From a virus (Duplodnaviria; Heunggongvirae; Uroviricota; Caudoviricetes), in IMG/VR virus record IMGVR_UViG_2778261576_000004, positions 1 to 41,372 of that record: a DNA stretch of 41,372 nucleotides. One strand, given 5' to 3'. Positions 1 through 41,372 of this stretch are shown here, piece after piece; position 1 is the first letter of the stretch; the number at the start of each line of letters is the position of its first letter. The translations under genes and the position numbers were made by a program. The notes under the pieces were generated by a model. That model was given only the letters and a program-made list of their open reading frames with translations, ran no database searches and had not been told where the DNA came from.

Positions 1-1251
1 GTGCTTACCGATACAAAATTAAAAAACCTCAAGCCGCAGGACAAACTGTACAAGGTCTCCGATCGTGACGGGCTGTATGTAGCTGTGCTTACGTCAGGCA
101 CGGTCTCATTTCGTTATGACTACCGTATCAACGGTCGCCGCGAAACACTGGTAATCGGGCAGTATGGGCGTGACGGTATCAGCCTGGCAGAAGCGCGGGA
201 AGAACTGATTGCTGCAAAGAAGCTGCTTAAAGCAGGCCAATCACCGGCTGCGGCTAAACGTGACGGTATCAAAAAGATTCGTGGTGCCGAAACGTTTGCG
301 GTACATACCGACAGTTATATGAAACACGTCATCCTGGCTGAAAGTACCCGCGCAATGAAGCAGGCAGTGATCGACCGTGACATACTTCCGGTTCTTGGCA
401 ACAAAATGATGGCTGAAATTACCACATCGATGGTTCGTGATTTGTGTGACCGGATTGTCGAACGCGGTGGCCGGGCAACAGCAGTGCAGGCCAGGGAGAT
501 CATCAGCAGCGTATACCGTCACGCCAATGACCGTGGTCATGGTTTGTTTAATCCTGCGGCTGACATTAAGCCTTCGTCTATCGCCATATTTAAACCACGA
601 GAGCGAACACTGACACCAGAAGAAATTGGCCTGTTCTTCCGCACGTTGGATGCCATTGGTGCTATGGGCACTATGAAAATGGCTTTAAAACTGGTGCTTA
701 TCACTATGGTTCGTAAGGGCGAATTCACCAATGCAACGTGGGATGAAATAGATTTTAAAAAATGGACATGGACAATTCCTTCAGACCGCATGAAGGGAAG
801 CCGGGCGCATGTTATTTACCTGCCTAAACAGGCTCAGGATATATTGGTCGGGTTGCAGATGTGCGCTGGTGGAAGTGAATATCTGGTTCCTGGTCGTTAC
901 AATTTCCGGAAGCCATTATCTAATGCCGCGCTGAACTCTCTGATCGACAGAACGGTGAAAATAATAAATGAAGATGGTGAGCATATTCAGGATTTCACCG
1001 TACACGATATGCGCCGTACAGCCAGTACGTTGTTGCATGAGGCTGGTTATCCTTCAGACTGGATTGAAAAGGCTCTGGCACATGAGCAGAAAGGTGTGCG
1101 CGCCGTATATAACAAAGCGGAATACGCCAGACAGCGCGCCTACATGTTGCAGCAGTGGGCCGATATGATTGATTCCTGGATTGACGGGGAGCATACGGAT
1201 CTGATTCCGTTCTCCCCGTCGAAGTTTGAGAAGTGGATGGCGGGGGAATAA
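1..1251 (+). CDS. int: Tyrosine site-specific recombinase (phage integrase, P4-like)
   Basis: 416-aa ORF from the window edge; C-terminal catalytic region with HDMRR (H-x-x-R), LAHE and a downstream Tyr (AVY). GTG at position 1, so the true start may be at or just upstream of the window. Confidence 0.9.
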   Translation: MLTDTKLKNLKPQDKLYKVSDRDGLYVAVLTSGTVSFRYDYRINGRRETLVIGQYGRDGISLAEAREELIAAKKLLKAGQSPAAAKRDGIKKIRGAETFAVHTDSYMKHVILAESTRAMKQAVIDRDILPVLGNKMMAEITTSMVRDLCDRIVERGGRATAVQAREIISSVYRHANDRGHGLFNPAADIKPSSIAIFKPRERTLTPEEIGLFFRTLDAIGAMGTMKMALKLVLITMVRKGEFTNATWDEIDFKKWTWTIPSDRMKGSRAHVIYLPKQAQDILVGLQMCAGGSEYLVPGRYNFRKPLSNAALNSLIDRTVKIINEDGEHIQDFTVHDMRRTASTLLHEAGYPSDWIEKALAHEQKGVRAVYNKAEYARQRAYMLQQWADMIDSWIDGEHTDLIPFSPSKFEKWMAGE

Positions 1252-1254
1252 CGT

Positions 1255-1449
1255 TTAATTATTCTGCTGATTTTCTTCCATCTCGGCTTCTGCTGCCAGT
1301 GATTCAATTTTATCTGTGAATATTGCTGACAGTGTTGCAAATTCAGCATCAGTGACAGCGGGAATTGGAACAAACCTGATCCCGCTGTGTGCAAGCATGT
1401 TTGCAGTTTCAAGGCATTTCCTTAAATCTGCTGGTGATGCCCTGTTCAT
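1255..1449 (-). CDS. Hypothetical small protein (64 aa)
   Basis: ATG at 1449 overlaps the methyltransferase stop codon in an ATGA arrangement (translational coupling); no recognisable domain. Confidence 0.3.
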   Translation of the reverse strand: MNRASPADLRKCLETANMLAHSGIRFVPIPAVTDAEFATLSAIFTDKIESLAAEAEMEENQQNN

Positions 1450-2096
1450 GCTGCACGCTCCCGCCCCTGGTTGTCTGTTGGTGACAGCGGAGCATTGCTG
1501 AATGCATTTGTTAATCTGGCAATATCCAACGCGTATCCAGGGTGTAGTTGCACTGCCGGGTCTTCGCACTGATTACCCCAAACATCGAAACCATGAGACG
1601 ACTGGCGGGCGAACAGTTCAATGCGAGAAACATCGCCTAACAATTGCACAAGTTTTTCACGAACGATATCTGGTTTTCTTGAATGCTCAAGCCGCGGTGC
1701 GGTAAATGACTGAACGATCCCTGCATTAATGCGCGTAGGTAGTTTTCCCTTTACTGCAAACAGGCAATCTTCACTATTGGCGCGAGTCATGTGACCCATA
1801 CCCATAACCAGTTTATCTGGTTGTCGACTACCACATTTTATCCACGTGAATCCCTTCATGGTCATCAGACGGAATCCCCAGGCCTCAACAACTTTTAGTG
1901 CTTCGAGTGGTTGTGTTGGCACCCACCACATGGCCAACAGACAGTTTTCATCGGCCAAATCCCACACAGGAAGGCGGCAGATATCCAGCACACTCATAAC
2001 CGGATATTTAAAACCGGCACCGCGATTACCATCTGCGGCTTTGTCCCGGTATACCCAGGGTGGATCTGCATAGATTAGTGTGTATTTCTTAGTCAT
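1446..2096 (-). CDS. MT-A70 family N6-adenine DNA methyltransferase
   Basis: N-terminal IYADPPW motif (DPPW catalytic signature) and overall MT-A70-like layout; start taken at the ATG giving MTKKY. No adjacent restriction gene. Confidence 0.85.
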   Translation of the reverse strand: MTKKYTLIYADPPWVYRDKAADGNRGAGFKYPVMSVLDICRLPVWDLADENCLLAMWWVPTQPLEALKVVEAWGFRLMTMKGFTWIKCGSRQPDKLVMGMGHMTRANSEDCLFAVKGKLPTRINAGIVQSFTAPRLEHSRKPDIVREKLVQLLGDVSRIELFARQSSHGFDVWGNQCEDPAVQLHPGYALDIARLTNAFSNAPLSPTDNQGRERAA

Positions 2097-2388
2097 AAAC
2101 CACCCCACAACATCCTATGCCGCTATAGTCGCCACGGCGAAGGCCGTTACCTTTTGTGATACATTGGTCCCTGCGAACCGCGATCCTTGCACGCTCAACA
2201 TCACCAGAAGCAACATCCATACACTGAAGCCAAAGGTGAGCGGCAATGCGGAACTGCCCTTTTTTCTCTCTTTCAATCGCGCGTTTTTCGATCTCTATCG
2301 CCGCAGGAGTAACGGCGACAATCTTTGACGGACTGCGCATTGAAACCTTGTTCATGTGATATTTTTCAAGTCGGCTTAACTTTCTCAC
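2089..2388 (-). CDS. Hypothetical protein
   Basis: ORF with GTG at 2388 and internal ATG at 2355; 3' end overlaps the methyltransferase start by 8 nt. No recognisable domain. Confidence 0.3.
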   Translation of the reverse strand: MRKLSRLEKYHMNKVSMRSPSKIVAVTPAAIEIEKRAIEREKKGQFRIAAHLWLQCMDVASGDVERARIAVRRDQCITKGNGLRRGDYSGIGCCGVVYD

Positions 2389-2497
2389 TTAATCCAACCC
2401 TCTCTGAAAATTAATGCCAGCAGATAAAGCCATGCTGAAACAGAGGCCAGGAATAAGTACCATCCTGACCATTTGCTCCAGTGCCTTAGCAGCACAC

Positions 2498-2746
2498 TCA
2501 TGCCGCGTTGCTCACGGGACGATATACACGTTGCTGAACAGGAGGTTTTTTACCCTGGAACTCTGCCGGGCTTGCTGCCTGACGTTCATCAAGCCAACGC
2601 TCAACTTCATCACGGTTCCATGCGCAGCGTTTATCGGTGATATACCAGCGTTTAGGAAATTCCCCTGCGCGCTCCATACGGTCGATAGTGCTCCATGACA
2701 GTGGAACCACCGCCAGGAGTTCCTTCTTACCTAATGCACCTTTCAT
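2498..2746 (-). CDS. AlpA/Xis-like small DNA-binding protein (putative excisionase or regulator)
   Basis: 82 aa; the segment LSWSTIDRMERAGEFPKRWYI...AWNRDEVERWL fits the AlpA-family HTH pattern; lies in the leftward early operon near int. Confidence 0.7.
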   Translation of the reverse strand: MKGALGKKELLAVVPLSWSTIDRMERAGEFPKRWYITDKRCAWNRDEVERWLDERQAASPAEFQGKKPPVQQRVYRPVSNAA

Positions 2747-2795
2747 AAATACCTCTCTTGGTTGCAGTGCGGCGCGCGTGGCGCCGCGGTGGTGG

Positions 2796-3737
2796 TTACA
2801 TAGATGTTTCGTTTAATTCTTCCCGACGAACGCTGTAAACGTCGGTGGCTTTTGCCAGCAGTTCGTCATCATCTGAAAGTTTTTGTGCAATGTATTTGTA
2901 AGCCTTATCCAGTTCGGAGACAGTGCTGTAATTCATCGCTGCGCTGGTAAAGGCCATCAGCATTTCTTCTGGATCACGGCTGTCCGATTTACGCGTTTGC
3001 TCATCAGGCTTTTTCGCTGGTTTAGCGTTGATCAGACTGTTCATTCCCGCAGCAGTGGTCGTTTGCGGAGTAATGTCTCGCTCAACGCGCGGTGCCGTTT
3101 CCTGTAATTCGTCTGGGGTGTAGACGCCCATGATTACGTCAGGACAGTGCAGGCGAGACCAGCGTTTTGTCGCAAGGTATGCGAGTTGTTGTTTCGGATC
3201 ACTGGCCCAAAGTGTGGAGTTTCTTACCTGTGCTTGAGACAGCATTAACTCAAGCACTCGAGGTTGATCCTCGCCCTTCATGGTTGCCCATACGCGAACA
3301 CCGCAGCCTTCTTCGTCTTTTAGAGTCCAGCCTGGTGCGATATATGGATTGCCGTTTTTGGATGTTTTCTCAACAAACTTACCGATCACGCGTTCCCACG
3401 GCCCGAACCACTCGTAGTTGATGCGATCTTTTGTTGGCGACATCGTTGAGATAACTGCGTTTACTAATTGGGCTTCATAACCTAGCGTGCCGTTCACAAC
3501 ATGGGTTTTCTGAGCCACGGCAAACGGGTTCATTCCCCACTGCGCAGCCTGCATTGCCACGGCCATGCAATCAGCTGGTTTCCCGGCGAGGTGCGCCGGT
3601 ACCGTTACGCGGCTTTGCGCCATTACCTCGGCGAATTTCATCAGTTGGTTCAAGCCGTCTGGGCTGAAAATAGTTGCAGCAGTTCCAGCGATTGCTGTGT
3701 CTACTGGTGCGTTGATGTTTGCGATGTCGTTGCTCAT
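2796..3737 (-). CDS. recT: RecT-family single-strand annealing recombinase
   Basis: About 313 aa with RecT-like sequence (NGTLGYEAQLVNAVI..., acidic C-terminus); start at the ATG giving MSNDIANI, overlapping the exonuclease stop (ATGA). Confidence 0.85.
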   Translation of the reverse strand: MSNDIANINAPVDTAIAGTAATIFSPDGLNQLMKFAEVMAQSRVTVPAHLAGKPADCMAVAMQAAQWGMNPFAVAQKTHVVNGTLGYEAQLVNAVISTMSPTKDRINYEWFGPWERVIGKFVEKTSKNGNPYIAPGWTLKDEEGCGVRVWATMKGEDQPRVLELMLSQAQVRNSTLWASDPKQQLAYLATKRWSRLHCPDVIMGVYTPDELQETAPRVERDITPQTTTAAGMNSLINAKPAKKPDEQTRKSDSRDPEEMLMAFTSAAMNYSTVSELDKAYKYIAQKLSDDDELLAKATDVYSVRREELNETSM

Positions 3738-4555
3738 ATGTACATATCCTGTTTGCGTGCCCACTCAGGGCGTTTAATGATTTCCACACCGCCCCATTCA
3801 TCATTGATGCGGCATTCGTGATAGGTATTCAGATCCCGGCGGAACAGAGCGTGCCCGGCATCGACATCCTGCGCATCCAGCTCGAACACGCGTACCGGAT
3901 ACCGACCACAATCAATGCTTTCGCTCACGGCAAGAAAGAAAAAACCATGCGGCTGACCAGTAACCCTCATTGCGCCTTCGCGGTACATTGCGTCCTGCAC
4001 GTGGTAGCGGAATTCCTCGATGTGGCGTGCAAAACGGTCCATATCTGCAACCTTTTTCACGTCGACGATCACGTTGTGCTCGTTCAGCCATTTGTCTGGA
4101 CGAATTCGGCACAACTCCCCCGTCTCTTCATCGTTCCAGTACATTGATGCTTCGCAGTAACCAGGTGCTTCCAGCATCCAGCGTGCCGCCGGGTGAGCCA
4201 TTGCGCTATCACGCATCAGCTCCAGTTTCCGCCACTGCTCGGCATCAAGTACCGTAATCCCCATATCCGCCACATCACGAAGAAATTCCTCTTCGTCAGC
4301 TTTACCTTGTTTCGTCCGACGATCGAATTTCGGTGAAACAATGAAGCGTTTGTCGAACTCTCCAGGCTCCAGAAGCAGACAGTGCAATGCGGTTCCCATA
4401 TCCAGTGCAGACTTTTTCTCTTCGTCTTCTGGTGCTGCCTGAACCCATTTAAGAAGCGCCGGATTCTTGGCAACCATGTCCAGTTGCGACTTACTCACGC
4501 CGTCACCGGCGTGGTAGTCTTCGTTGCTGATGTCGAAATAAATTCCCGGTTTCAT
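3734..4555 (-). CDS. PD-(D/E)XK exonuclease (RecE/exonuclease VIII-like partner of RecT)
   Basis: 273 aa directly upstream of and coupled to recT; D...D-V-K motif (IRPDKW...VIVDVKK) typical of PD-(D/E)XK nucleases. Confidence 0.7.
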   Translation of the reverse strand: MKPGIYFDISNEDYHAGDGVSKSQLDMVAKNPALLKWVQAAPEDEEKKSALDMGTALHCLLLEPGEFDKRFIVSPKFDRRTKQGKADEEEFLRDVADMGITVLDAEQWRKLELMRDSAMAHPAARWMLEAPGYCEASMYWNDEETGELCRIRPDKWLNEHNVIVDVKKVADMDRFARHIEEFRYHVQDAMYREGAMRVTGQPHGFFFLAVSESIDCGRYPVRVFELDAQDVDAGHALFRRDLNTYHECRINDEWGGVEIIKRPEWARKQDMYI

Positions 4556-4851
4556 GCCGCGTCCCTCTGCCCATCAAGCTGATCAGCCAGATCCCAGCGG
4601 GCGATAATTGCCATTGCCTCGCGCCGGTAGGCATCCATTAGTTCTTCGAACTCAGGGCTGTCTTTAGCGGCCTCCAGTACTTCCTGGCGAACGCCTTTAA
4701 CTGTTACAACGTCGAAAGTTGATGCCAGTTGATGAAGCCGGATACTCTCAATCAGTTCAACTTGTCGGTCATATAGCTGTTCTGACAGACGGTAGTTCTT
4801 GTCGAATGCCAGCATGATTTTTTGAAGATTTTTCTGCTGATTAACGTTCAT
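4552..4851 (-). CDS. Hypothetical early protein
   Basis: ORF in the leftward operon; start at 4851 (MNVNQQ) has an upstream GGGAGGG Shine-Dalgarno; ATG at 4866 is an alternative. Confidence 0.45.
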   Translation of the reverse strand: MNVNQQKNLQKIMLAFDKNYRLSEQLYDRQVELIESIRLHQLASTFDVVTVKGVRQEVLEAAKDSPEFEELMDAYRREAMAIIARWDLADQLDGQRDAA

Positions 4852-4854
4852 TAT

Positions 4855-5006
4855 CAGCCCTCCCATATCTCGTTATCGTTGGCCACATCGCGAGCTTCTT
4901 TGCTGACGAAAGCCCACTTAATGCCTTCCTGTAAGGTGCGGAACTTCCAGCTCATGAATCCGCATGCAGTAACGCAGTACCAACCGTTGATGATTTTCCA
5001 CTGCAT
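4855..5006 (-). CDS. Hypothetical small protein (about 50 aa)
   Basis: Short ORF (MQWKIINGWYCV...) between OL-like sites and the next early gene; below the ORF-track size cut-off; no known domain. Confidence 0.25.
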
Positions 5007-5025
5007 AACTTGTTACCTCGGTCTG

Positions 5026-5102
5026 TTACCGTTGAGGTAATAATTATGCGTATATGGTTTGATGTCAATAGATATGAGTTAAAAAAATTACCCGTTAGGT
5101 AA
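5026..5102. promoter_or_regulatory. OL-like operator region: two TTACC-N5-GGTAA palindromes (5026-5040, 5088-5102)
   Basis: Two perfect 15-bp palindromes in the intergenic region between the repressor gene and the first leftward early gene. Confidence 0.5.
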
Positions 5103-40301: not shown

Positions 40302-40841
40302 TTAATTAAACCAGCTGTCCGATTTGTTCTCTTCTGCTTTGCCCACGCTTTTCATCAGATCGCGACCGCCTTCAGTCATATTTCTGTTTGCGTCAGCTTC
40401 AGATTGCACCACATCGGTTTGCGCAGCTTTGTGCTTCAGTTCCTGATCGATAAATTCGTTTTCGCGCTTAACGCGGGCTTCTTCTTTCGCCAGTGCCAGT
40501 TTTTGTTTCTGAATCTCTAAGCTGCGTAGCTCATCTTCATAACTTTGATCGCGTTTTTTGTCCGCAGTGGCTTCGGCGTCCAGTTTATCCTGACGAGCTT
40601 TCTTATTTGCCGCTGCCGTTGCCGCTCTTTTATTAGCCGCGGCCTGGGCGTTTGCGCGACGTTGCTTCTCTTGCTGGATTTCCCTGTTGCGCTCCGCGAC
40701 CCATTCGTCATGCTGCCTTTGCTCTTCATTTTTACCTTGCTGTTCCGCTTCTGCGACAGCCGAGAGTTGATCCTGCAATGATGAGGCGATAGCCGGATAG
40801 CTAAAGGAGGCTAAGATGGCGCAAAGAAAAACTTTCTTCAT
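40302..40841 (-). CDS. Secreted periplasmic coiled-coil protein
   Basis: Signal-peptide-like N-terminus MKKVFLCAILASFSYPAIA; Lys/Glu/Ala/Gln-rich helical body; family not confidently recognised. Confidence 0.45.
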   Translation of the reverse strand: MKKVFLCAILASFSYPAIASSLQDQLSAVAEAEQQGKNEEQRQHDEWVAERNREIQQEKQRRANAQAAANKRAATAAANKKARQDKLDAEATADKKRDQSYEDELRSLEIQKQKLALAKEEARVKRENEFIDQELKHKAAQTDVVQSEADANRNMTEGGRDLMKSVGKAEENKSDSWFN

Positions 40842-40856
40842 GACTCCTCCTGATTA

Positions 40857-41372
40857 TTAGCTCTTTTCAGGACATTTGGTATTTGGCTGAATACGCGTTT
40901 CGTTATACGTCGTGGTAATAACAACGGCTAAACCTGTCGTAAACTGGCACTCTTTACCCACCTGGGTGGAGGTATACACTTTGGTGCCTTCCTTATACGT
41001 TAGAGAAACACCTTCCACTAAGGTTTTATCATTCACCATAGAACCCGCTGCCGCGCCAACAGCTCCGCCGCCAACTGCACCTGCCGTCGTTCCGGAATTG
41101 CTGCCAGACCCCACGTTGTGGCCGATTACACCGCCAGCGACTGCACCAATAAGCGCGCCGAAGGCTTGTGCGTTTCGTTTATTTTGGGAGTTGTCTACGG
41201 CAACTTTTGCGGGAAGAATGGAAATAATATTAACGGTTTTAGTTTCTTGTTTGGTATTCAGTTGATCGGTTTGATAAACATCGGCGGCATGATCATCAGC
41301 ATTTGACTGGCATCCTGCCAGAGTGAATGACGCTAACATTGCCACAGGCAGAAGACATTTTTTAAATTTCAT
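40857..41372 (-). CDS. Glycine-zipper lipoprotein (SlyB/17-kDa-antigen-like)
   Basis: Lipobox LAGC after a signal peptide; Gly/Ala-rich glycine-zipper segment (GALIGAVAGGVIGHNVGSG...AVGGGAVGAAAG); start codon is the last triplet of the window. Confidence 0.55.
   Translation of the reverse strand: MKFKKCLLPVAMLASFTLAGCQSNADDHAADVYQTDQLNTKQETKTVNIISILPAKVAVDNSQNKRNAQAFGALIGAVAGGVIGHNVGSGSNSGTTAGAVGGGAVGAAAGSMVNDKTLVEGVSLTYKEGTKVYTSTQVGKECQFTTGLAVVITTTYNETRIQPNTKCPEKS

Follow-up and report, generated by a model that had tools for sequence, protein, structure and literature searches.

A Stand-Alone MT-A70 Adenine Methyltransferase beside an Orf63-Type Gene in a phiV10/epsilon15-like Prophage

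The window, the 41,372-nucleotide stretch of DNA analyzed here, carries an ordinary, already known and annotated stand-alone adenine methyltransferase. In the explanation that we favor, to which we give about an even chance, this phage protein methylates adenine in DNA on its own, probably at GATC, without a cognate endonuclease, and the gene beside it is an independent gene of the Orf63 type. The outcomes are mainly corrective: the overlap that joins the two genes is ordinary packing, and the 64-aa ORF is homologous to lambda Orf63.

Results

The Prophage and Its Locus

The window is a phiV10/epsilon15-like temperate podophage, an E. coli prophage inserted after guaA. DNA identity across the region is 97–99.9% with phiV10, TL-2011b, ZX5, and related phages. 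The position of the locus downstream of guaA is shown in strain FT130, whose prophage copy is a deleted version. When complete E. coli genomes are compared, the early-right region is mosaic, and none matches the window end to end. The locus is carried by 545 of 5426 complete E. coli genomes (~10%), where it is annotated as MT-A70, PerC, DUF1382, and integrase. Annotations of an identical methyltransferase protein, WP_000163456.1, and of its neighbors already exist for phiV10-type phages and for hundreds of E. coli genomes. The tyrosine integrase (positions 1–1251, plus strand) matches Pfam Arm-DNA-bind_3 and Phage_integrase and is 87% identical to the epsilon15 integrase. It is convergent with the leftward operon described below, and its stop codon lies 3 nt from that of the Orf63-like gene. 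A sequence-only reading of this DNA had placed the methyltransferase next to the integrase. The two genes are indeed near each other, but the 64-aa gene intervenes.

The Methyltransferase

The methyltransferase gene lies on the minus strand at positions 1446–2096 (ATG, 2096–2094; TGA, 1448–1446) and encodes a 216-aa protein that begins MTKKYTLIYADPPW. It is assigned to the MT-A70 family (class beta) of N6-adenine methyltransferases. The Pfam MT-A70 profile (PF05063) matches over its full length, positions 1–172 of 172 (E = 3.2e-22; 79.7 bits against a cut-off of 23.9), and PADLOC MTase_II also matches (E = 2e-77). Matches to PDB sequences include MTA1 (E = 3.5e-13) and METTL3. Direct reading of the sequence places the codons of catalytic motif IV, DPPW, at positions 2055–2066 (minus strand). 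They specify residues 11–14, which lie N-terminal to the SAM-binding region as the MT-A70 family requires. In an alignment of 40 sequences, D11, P12, and P13 are each conserved at ≥90% and W14 is invariant. The earlier identification of an MT-A70 methyltransferase with a DPPW motif is therefore borne out, with the motif intact.

An AF2 model of the protein (pLDDT 75, pTM 0.73) returns METTL3 (E = 9e-15) and MTA1 (E = 3e-13, rmsd ~4 Å) as top Foldseek matches, and the protein is predicted to adopt a Rossmann-like fold of the METTL3/MTA1 type. The catalytic core comprises approximately residues 1–190, and such a small core (~190 aa) leaves little space for a target-recognition domain. The substrate-facing loops, residues 19–29 and 97–106, are low-confidence in the model. 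The C-terminal tail (residues ~195–216) is similar to the C-terminal end of an ORF that stands by itself at Kluyvera locus L006, and it was probably left by a fusion.

Of 80 near-identical prophage contigs, 78 have an intact methyltransferase ORF. Counted ORF by ORF across the contigs, variant codons are synonymous in 63 cases and nonsynonymous in 40 for the methyltransferase, which is under purifying selection, and synonymous in 16 and nonsynonymous in 9 for the 64-aa ORF. Because the variant codons are mostly synonymous and the small ORF matches DUF1382, both ORFs are real genes and not chance ORFs.

The enzyme is an orphan. A Type II restriction–modification system would place a cognate endonuclease next to it; its neighbors are instead a PerC-family gene and a DUF1382 gene, which upholds the earlier statement that no restriction endonuclease adjoins it. 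Pfam and PADLOC scans of all operon genes and 20 other ORFs of the window, a set with only a minority of the structural genes, detected neither an endonuclease nor a second methyltransferase. Several of the scanned ORFs have no family match of any kind. GATC occurs in the prophage at an observed/expected ratio of 0.76, and neither its frequency nor that of palindromes is informative on specificity.

The Leftward Operon

The methyltransferase and the 64-aa gene appear to be the last two genes of a leftward early operon that carries recombination genes. At the head of this operon is a candidate sigma-70-like promoter (TTGACA-17-AATTAT; positions 5040–5068, minus strand), found by consensus scan only, just 3′ of the repressor-gene terminator. 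The same kind of scan of the minus strand from 1255 to 5040 found no promoter-like or terminator-like site. Three ATGA-joined genes occupy positions 2796–4866 on the minus strand: orf104 (4552–4866), a PD-(D/E)XK exonuclease (3734–4555), and RecT (2796–3737). Pfam matches for these genes are RecT (E = 2e-44) and DUF3799 (E = 1e-22). An 82-aa AlpA-like helix-turn-helix protein (2498–2746, minus strand) follows. Judging from its matches to Pfam PF05930 (E = 3e-5) and to phrog_66 (E = 2e-16), which is labeled "excisionase and transcriptional regulator", it is probably an excisionase or regulator. A 38-aa hydrophobic ORF (2385–2501, minus strand) overlaps both of its flanking genes by 4 nt; the annotations of phiV10 and YDC107_2 give it as a putative membrane protein. 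Overlaps are present at six of the seven junctions of the operon.

Immediately upstream of the methyltransferase is a gene for a small PerC-family protein (2089–2388, minus strand), read as 99 aa from a GTG at 2388 or as 88 aa from an ATG at 2355. The annotated N-terminus of epsilon15 gp31, which is 78% identical, favors the GTG start. A Pfam PF06069 score of 30.3 bits (cut-off 22.6; E = 5e-7) and a match to phrog_868, "transcriptional activator" (E = 1e-54), underlie the family assignment; with the NCBIfam ANR model this ORF reaches 23.9, short of the cut-off of 32. The TAA stop codon of this gene overlaps the methyltransferase ATG by 8 nt (ATGACTAA, 2089–2096), a point absent from the earlier reading. 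A search for natural fusions of PerC to the methyltransferase, which would have hinted at a functional link, turned up a single candidate, P0005 (297 aa, 97% identical, three member sequences); it was rejected, as it is most simply a frameshift across this 8-nt overlap.

The ATGA Junction and the 64-aa Gene

The 64-aa gene occupies positions 1255–1449 on the minus strand; its ATG is at 1449–1447, and its 64 codons plus stop end at 1255. It matches Pfam DUF1382 (PF07131; E = 1.4e-30; 105.7 bits against a cut-off of 27) and, over 61 residues, the structure of lambda Orf63 (PDB 8DSB; E = 5.8e-13), and Orf63 has been equated with DUF1382 (PMC10869804). It is also 49% identical to gp04 of phages PA28 and PA8. 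The ATGA in which its start overlaps the methyltransferase stop lies at 1446–1449 (minus strand), just where the sequence-only reading had seen it, and a Shine–Dalgarno-like GGGAG motif is found 9 nt 5′ of the ATG.

The ATGA is kept in all 78 scorable near-identical prophages, whatever gene lies downstream. That gene is Orf63 in 57 prophages, a Ser/Thr phosphatase in 17, and an 82-aa gene of unknown function in 4, in genomes that are otherwise 98–100% identical. DUF1382 also occurs without a methyltransferase in lambda and Phi24B. The ATGA overlap is thus ordinary operon packing at a cargo-exchange junction, and the 64-aa gene is an independent accessory gene of the lambda Orf63 type in a variable slot 3′ of the methyltransferase, not its dedicated partner. 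Because the junction is generic and the downstream gene is exchanged in 21 of 78 prophages, the overlap is not evidence of partnership. As to the coupling proposed earlier, the physical overlap with a real gene stands, but no specific relationship between the two genes goes with it.

A Mobile Single-Gene Cassette

The surroundings of the methyltransferase were surveyed at 42 loci with a full-length gene. Tightly abutting ORFs fall into ~21 sequence clusters on each side, upstream at 33 of the loci and downstream at 31, and 25 of the 31 tight downstream junctions overlap by 4 nt. DUF1382 is downstream in none of 40 species-level relatives, and no endonuclease is associated with the methyltransferase at any of the 42 loci. 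The sole nearby methyltransferase genes are cytosine-methyltransferase-like ORFs at two loci (L040 and L042). A PerC-domain ORF abuts the cassette in the window and at four species-level loci (L022, L023, L024, and L029), with L020 as a weak case; at L020, L022, and L023 the fused protein has a winged-helix domain N-terminal to its PerC domain. At the DNA level, homology with the Stx2a phage PA28 begins exactly at the methyltransferase start codon and ends near residue 177. Further E. coli copies lie in the nin region, flanked by NinB and NinD, or stand free 3′ of lysis genes. The methyltransferase is a mobile single-gene cassette among enterobacterial temperate phages.

Discussion

The target of the enzyme can be approached through its closest studied homologue. 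Residues 1–187 share 83% amino acid identity with M.EcoPA8orf6770P, gp5 of the Stx2a phage phiPA8, which is identical in PA28. PMC10810198 notes a high similarity of this protein to M.EcoGV, whose overexpression led to GATC methylation in vivo, and Table 3 of PMC6602927 lists M.EcoGV as a GATC "Dam homolog". M.EcoGV is the enzyme of the O104:H4 Stx2 phage. On DNA, dam– DNA included, purified M.EcoPA8orf6770P by itself is barely active above background; in a 1:1 complex with PNB-2 it prefers 16S rRNA and 30S subunits, and it increases spontaneous induction (PMC10810198). The DNA (GATC) activity of this methyltransferase clade is disputed for these reasons.

Our favored reading can be laid out as a mechanism. 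After infection or induction, the methyltransferase would be cotranscribed with the recombination genes, a timing suggested by gene order and one consensus promoter match; the probable origin of the transcript is the promoter-like site at 5040–5068. The methyltransferase would be translated by coupling or reinitiation along the chain of overlapping genes, and it would act alone, probably as a homodimer by analogy with other class beta enzymes. Its presumed substrate is adenine in DNA. Homology makes GATC the likeliest target, in the manner of Dam, with the M.EcoGV assignment taken second-hand. Phage DNA would in this way stay fully methylated during replication and in its packaged form, and such DNA would resist restriction enzymes that are blocked by adenine methylation. 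The methyltransferase might also influence the balance between lysis and lysogeny. We infer this biological role; self-protection or epigenetic regulation, as put forward in the sequence-only reading, is plausible and generic.

The enzyme could instead be an RNA methyltransferase like the phiPA8 holoenzyme, one that with a small nucleic-acid-binding partner methylates 16S rRNA and tunes spontaneous prophage induction. The shared core with an enzyme that prefers 16S rRNA in the presence of PNB-2 (PMC10810198) points in this direction, as do the closest folds, METTL3 and MTA1, which both work in hetero-oligomers, and the small PerC-family gene translationally coupled upstream in the window. However, PNB-2 (phiPA8 gp6, 143 aa) has no homologue in the window (tblastn, E < 0.01) or in any of 124 other loci. 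The C-terminal ~27 residues of the phiPA8-type enzyme, proposed to be important for PNB-2 binding (Gong et al.), have an unrelated counterpart in the window enzyme. The ~21 kinds of upstream neighbor across loci make an obligate neighboring partner unlikely, and the modified rRNA base has yet to be named even for phiPA8. We consider this explanation unlikely. A 62-aa protein, PA28 gp06, was considered as PNB-2 and rejected: the published terminator sequence is absent from PA28, and the phiPA8 record gives PNB-2 as 143 aa. PA28 gp06 shares just the last ~20 residues with PNB-2. In a separate reading, the PerC-family protein of phiV10/epsilon15-like prophages could replace PNB-2 as a targeting or regulatory subunit, directing the MT-A70 enzyme to a specific RNA or DNA target and tuning prophage induction. 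The hint for it is the PerC-domain ORF that abuts the cassette in the window and at the other loci listed above. PNB-2, on which Pfam gives a weak HTH_11 match alone, has no similarity to PerC proteins, and our literature searches returned no link of PerC to MT-A70, nor of the exo-xis region to a phage methyltransferase. A PerC subunit is quite improbable; if true, it would tie the PerC/Pch regulators to nucleic-acid methylation in a prophage of ~10% of E. coli.

Low target specificity, as in M.EcoGII or Hia5, would give the phage genome broad protection from many restriction enzymes. The minimal ~190-aa domain with no obvious target-recognition domain is consistent with such an enzyme, the activity of purified M.EcoPA8orf6770P is weak and non-substrate-specific, and nonspecific class beta enzymes do exist in prophages (PMC5778455, PMC7544214). 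Against this stand the GATC specificity that secondary sources give to the close homologue M.EcoGV, and the absence of M.EcoGII from the matches of every homology search with the window methyltransferase; we regard a nonspecific enzyme as doubtful. A dedicated two-gene unit of methyltransferase and Orf63-like protein, in which the ATGA ensures stoichiometric coexpression, was implied by the sequence-only reading and is very unlikely. The Shine–Dalgarno-like motif at the overlap would suit such a unit, the methyltransferase–DUF1382 order recurs in the Stx2a phages PA28 and PA8, and lambda Orf63, whose partner is not known, binds a helical ligand in a cleft (PMC10869804). However, the overlap in PA28 and PA8 differs (23–41 nt), and DNA homology breaks between the two genes. 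The exchange of the downstream gene among near-identical prophages, the lack of DUF1382 downstream in the species-level relatives, and its occurrence alone in lambda and Phi24B argue further against a unit. A decaying restriction–modification remnant or inactive gene might be suspected from the missing partner endonuclease and from a tail that resembles a fusion scar. The intact ORF with its synonymous excess, the match at every Pfam profile position with DPPW conserved, and the 42 loci free of a linked endonuclease leave this the slimmest of chances.

The sequence-only reading held that its own proposal would be refuted if no new adenine methylation motif accompanied the gene. This test is unsound. 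The lack of a new motif in a lysogen would not refute activity, because one close homologue is assigned to GATC in the sources cited above, and GATC is already methylated by host Dam, and because another homologue acts on 16S rRNA. The methyltransferase may also be silent in a lysogen, since its gene sits at the far end of an early lytic operon. A comparison of lysogen and cured methylomes in a dam+ host is thus not decisive; were the target GATC or rRNA, its outcome would be falsely negative. The discovery value of the locus is small, because the identical protein and its neighbors are already annotated and biochemical work exists on a homologue whose core is 83% identical. For the question of DNA (GATC) versus rRNA as the target of this widespread MT-A70 clade, the PNB-2-less version in ~10% of E. 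coli is a convenient natural test case.

Comparison with Known Systems

M.EcoPA8orf6770P resembles the window enzyme in its MT-A70 fold, its DPPW motif, and its status as an orphan near the integrase end of a temperate E. coli phage. Its gene likewise has a DUF1382 gene on its downstream side, and a small gene overlaps it from upstream. The C-terminal tails of the two proteins (216 aa in the window, 208 aa in phiPA8) are unrelated and do not align, the upstream gene is of the PerC family in the window and PNB-2 in phiPA8, and the backbones are those of a Uetakevirus-like podophage and a lambdoid Sepvirinae phage, respectively. Closer in lineage are phiV10, whose adenine methylase region is 98.7% identical to the window at the DNA level, and epsilon15. 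Both share the operon position with the window, with HTH, PerC, and methyltransferase genes facing a convergent integrase. The epsilon15 adenine methylase (AAO06092.1) is 77–78% identical to the window protein, but it has 192 aa and lacks the tail. In epsilon15, gp30 lies between PerC and the methylase, and a small membrane-like ORF rather than DUF1382 follows the methylase.

Lambda orf63, in the exo-xis region, holds a place equivalent to that of the 64-aa ORF, between recombination genes and integrase; unlike the window, lambda has no methyltransferase adjoining it. Lambda Orf63 is a dimeric pro-lytic protein of alpha-beta-alpha fold whose molecular function is not known even in lambda. The best structural matches of the window enzyme are METTL3–METTL14 and the ciliate MTA1 complex (Foldseek E ~1e-14, TM 0.6–0.68), which have the DPPW active site in common with it. 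These are eukaryotic, multisubunit assemblies with accessory RNA- or DNA-binding domains, and they are only 20–25% identical to the window enzyme. T4 Dam, P1 Dmt, and VT2-Sa Dam are phage-borne, partner-less GATC m6A methyltransferases that act in a dam+ host. They are classical Dam enzymes of the alpha class, not MT-A70 proteins, and they fill the same role as that proposed for the window enzyme, whose GATC specificity is putative.

Results

The methyltransferase gene runs on the minus strand from an ATG at 2096 to a TGA at 1446-1448, begins MTKKYTLIYADPPW, and encodes 216 aa. Its stop codon shares bases, as ATGA, with the start codon of a 64-aa ORF on the same strand (ATG 1449-1447, end 1255). 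Reading of the ORFs confirms both genes and their overlap at 1255-2096, where the sequence-only reading had placed them. The 216-aa protein covers the Pfam MT-A70 profile in full (E=3.2e-22) and matches the PADLOC Type II methyltransferase model (E=2e-77), PHROG 359 ('DNA methyltransferase'), and, among solved structures, the ciliate MTA1 complex and human METTL3. METTL3 and MTA1 are also the best Foldseek matches of its AlphaFold2 model (pLDDT 75, pTM 0.73), and DPPW plus about 100 more positions are invariant or nearly so across a 40-sequence alignment. The last ~20 residues (…NAPLSPTDNQGRERAA; …NAPLSPTDNQG…; window 1465-1520), which are modeled with low confidence, resemble the end of a separate 54-aa ORF downstream of the methyltransferase in a Kluyvera prophage (L006, 3591-3755). 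This resemblance suggests that a deletion in the E. coli lineage fused the methyltransferase frame with that of a downstream ORF, the tail probably being a remnant of the fusion rather than part of the enzyme.

The 64-aa ORF, preceded by a GGGAG motif 9 nt upstream of its ATG, belongs to DUF1382 (Pfam, E=1.4e-30) and aligns with PDB 8DSB (E=5.8e-13). The latter is the structure of lambda Orf63, which belongs to the exo-xis region, forms dimers, and acts pro-lytically (PMC10869804). On the plus strand, the integrase gene (1-1251) converges on this Orf63 homologue; just 3 nt separate the two stop codons (window 1249-1257), and scanning gave no terminator-like site. Early transcription from the leftward operon would continue into int in antisense; the epsilon15 record has RNase III sites annotated around int.

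The ATGA junction was compared across 80 IMG/VR contigs whose methyltransferases are 98-100% identical. The 216-aa ORF and the ATGA are kept in 78 of them (L048, L051, L053, and others), and the gene that starts there varies: 57 have the Orf63 homologue, 17 have a 219-aa Ser/Thr phosphatase of the lambda-phosphatase type, and the other 4 have an unknown 82-aa ORF. DUF1382 is downstream of the methyltransferase in none of 40 loci from different species. When the species-level loci are taken together with PA28, epsilon15, and the window, a tightly abutting ORF is found downstream in 31 of 42 loci (25 of the 31 by a 4-nt overlap) and upstream in 33, and the neighbors form about 21 sequence clusters per side. 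Elsewhere in E. coli, copies of the cassette are flanked by NinB and NinD in lambdoid nin regions or stand free after lysis genes, and lambda carries DUF1382 without the methyltransferase. Compared with Stx2a phage PA28, the window shows DNA homology from precisely the methyltransferase start codon to about codon 177, and then none until within DUF1382. From the variable ATGA-linked genes, the many neighbor clusters, the independent occurrence of DUF1382, and the breaks in PA28 homology, we conclude that the methyltransferase moves as a single-gene cassette, that the position downstream is a cargo slot, and that ATGA is a standard compact junction. The translational coupling to the small ORF that the sequence-only reading had claimed is plausible, but it tells nothing particular about Orf63; the same ATGA leads into other genes in 21 of the 78 contigs. 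Phage Phi24B (L125, HM208303) has two DUF1382 paralogues (2682-2897 and 4344-4535), orf63 proper by exo and a second near the integrase; a DUF550/551 gene precedes the latter, where phiPA8 has its methyltransferase.

Upstream, a PerC family gene (Pfam; 2089-2388, minus strand) shares its last 8 nt (ATGACTAA), stop codon included, with the start of the methyltransferase, a feature absent from the earlier reading. Beyond PerC lie, in order, a 38-aa hydrophobic ORF, an AlpA-like HTH protein, RecT, a PD-(D/E)XK exonuclease, and a 104-aa ORF. This leftward operon has a promoter-like site at 5040-5068; scanning it for internal promoters or terminators gave no match. Overlaps occur at six of its seven junctions, 4 nt long ([A/G]TGA) in five and 8 nt long in the sixth. 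The sole non-overlapping junction, between RecT and the HTH gene, holds a GC-rich inverted repeat (GCGGCGCGCGTGGCGCCGC, window 2766-2792) without a T-run; the equivalent element is labeled a transcriptional pause stem-loop in the epsilon15 record. Three operon genes end in a shared GC(G/A)GCATGA (window 4552-4560, 2498-2506, and 1446-1454), so the encoded proteins end in ...AA, an ending also common in relatives' methyltransferases and upstream ORFs. The shared ending may represent a short, conserved boundary that favors module exchange.

PerC-domain ORFs directly abut the cassette start in a number of unrelated prophage settings: the window, four further species-level loci (L022, L023, L024, and L029, ~2500-3004), and, as a weak case, L020. 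In three of those loci (Buttiauxella, Dryocola) the PerC domain carries a fused N-terminal MarR-like winged-helix domain. Epsilon15-like phages likewise have PerC upstream of the methyltransferase, at a short distance. A PerC-MT-A70 fusion ORF (P0005, 297 aa, three Logan assemblies) that shares 97% identity with the window genes is most simply explained by a frameshift across the 8-nt overlap, not by a natural domain fusion. Epsilon15-like prophages of other genera carry variable cargo between PerC and the methyltransferase, overlapping the methyltransferase start (L009 2417-2995; L012 2492-2998; L011 1937-3004; L010 2513-3004). Examples are a PD-(D/E)XK endonuclease-like protein (below-cut-off match to Pfam PDDEXK_5, E=5e-5) and, judged by eye, a 355-aa protein with a DGQHR motif and an HNH/NUMOD-like protein. 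Such cargo may represent defense genes or, in those relatives, even partner endonucleases.

The 1.2-kb region is 97-99.9% identical to phiV10, TL-2011b, ZX5, and other epsilon15-like (Uetakevirus) phages, which the first 25 kb of the window also follows. Of 5426 complete E. coli genomes, 545 carry the locus, which directly follows guaA in strain FT130; the annotations there read 'MT-A70 family methyltransferase', 'PerC family transcriptional regulator', 'DUF1382 family protein', and integrase for the 545 copies. The remaining window functions are replication, packaging, virion, and lysis. Pfam and PADLOC scans of the operon genes plus 20 other window ORFs, several of which had no match at all, found no restriction endonuclease and no second methyltransferase; the methyltransferase is thus an orphan, which bears out the sequence-only reading. 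FT130 (L001, NZ_CP040090.1, 4001-33156) holds a deleted form of the prophage that lacks the early-right region, from replication genes through terminase, and has the portal gene next after the immunity region; its int-Orf63-methyltransferase-PerC segment is 100% identical to the window. By position and length relative to FT130, two minus-strand ORFs at the right end of the window (179 aa, 40302-40841; 171 aa, 40857-41372, to the window edge) would correspond to host yfgI and yfgH. In that case the end of the prophage falls near 40.1-40.3 kb, and the window covers almost exactly a single prophage that extends from the start codon of int to the right junction.

Discussion

We propose with middling confidence that the protein is an autonomous DNA adenine methyltransferase, probably a homodimer, expressed from the leftward early operon. 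It would be made together with the recombination genes and act alone; its target would be adenine in DNA, with GATC the likeliest site by homology. Autonomy is favored because the cassette occurs with many unrelated neighbors and without PNB-2, the partner subunit in phiPA8; a homodimer is probable because class beta methyltransferases are thought to require dimerization (PMC7544214). Possible roles would be to keep replicating phage DNA fully methylated, shielded from restriction enzymes that adenine methylation blocks, and to influence the lysis-lysogeny switch.

The catalytic core shares 83% identity with M.EcoPA8orf6770P, which is gp5 of Stx2a phages PA8 and PA28. M.EcoGV, described as highly similar to M.EcoPA8orf6770P, methylated GATC in vivo when over-produced (PMC10810198) and is listed as a GATC 'Dam homolog' (PMC6602927). 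[quoted passage not shown] Purified alone, M.EcoPA8orf6770P has only weak, non-specific activity (PMC10810198), and we consider it improbable that the window protein is a low-specificity enzyme. A dedicated unit of methyltransferase and Orf63 is very doubtful, as the ATGA junction is uninformative about Orf63 in particular. That the gene is a decaying remnant is scarcely credible; variant codons among near-identical prophages are 63 synonymous versus 40 non-synonymous in the methyltransferase, 16 versus 9 in the Orf63 homologue, and 24 versus 14 in PerC, a bias consistent with purifying selection on all three. Comparing the methylomes of a dam+ lysogen and a cured strain cannot refute methyltransferase activity, because host Dam already methylates GATC, because DNA methylome profiling is blind to rRNA methylation, and because the gene may be unexpressed in lysogens.

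The methyltransferase is already known: it is an annotated gene of a well-known phage lineage, with a close homologue that has been studied. Gong, Chakraborty, and Koudelka found that disrupting the M.EcoPA8orf6770P gene lowers spontaneous induction and virulence, a defect that a DPPW-to-APPA mutant fails to complement (PMC10810198). A sequence search found no homologue of phiPA8 PNB-2 (143 aa) in the window or any other fetched locus, and PNB-2 has no similarity to PerC. In phiPA8, PNB-2 lies upstream of the methyltransferase, whereas PerC takes that place in the window. This adjacency could reflect a functional link analogous to that with PNB-2, but shared residence in early operons is the simpler account, leaving PerC as an only mildly unconventional lead at this locus.
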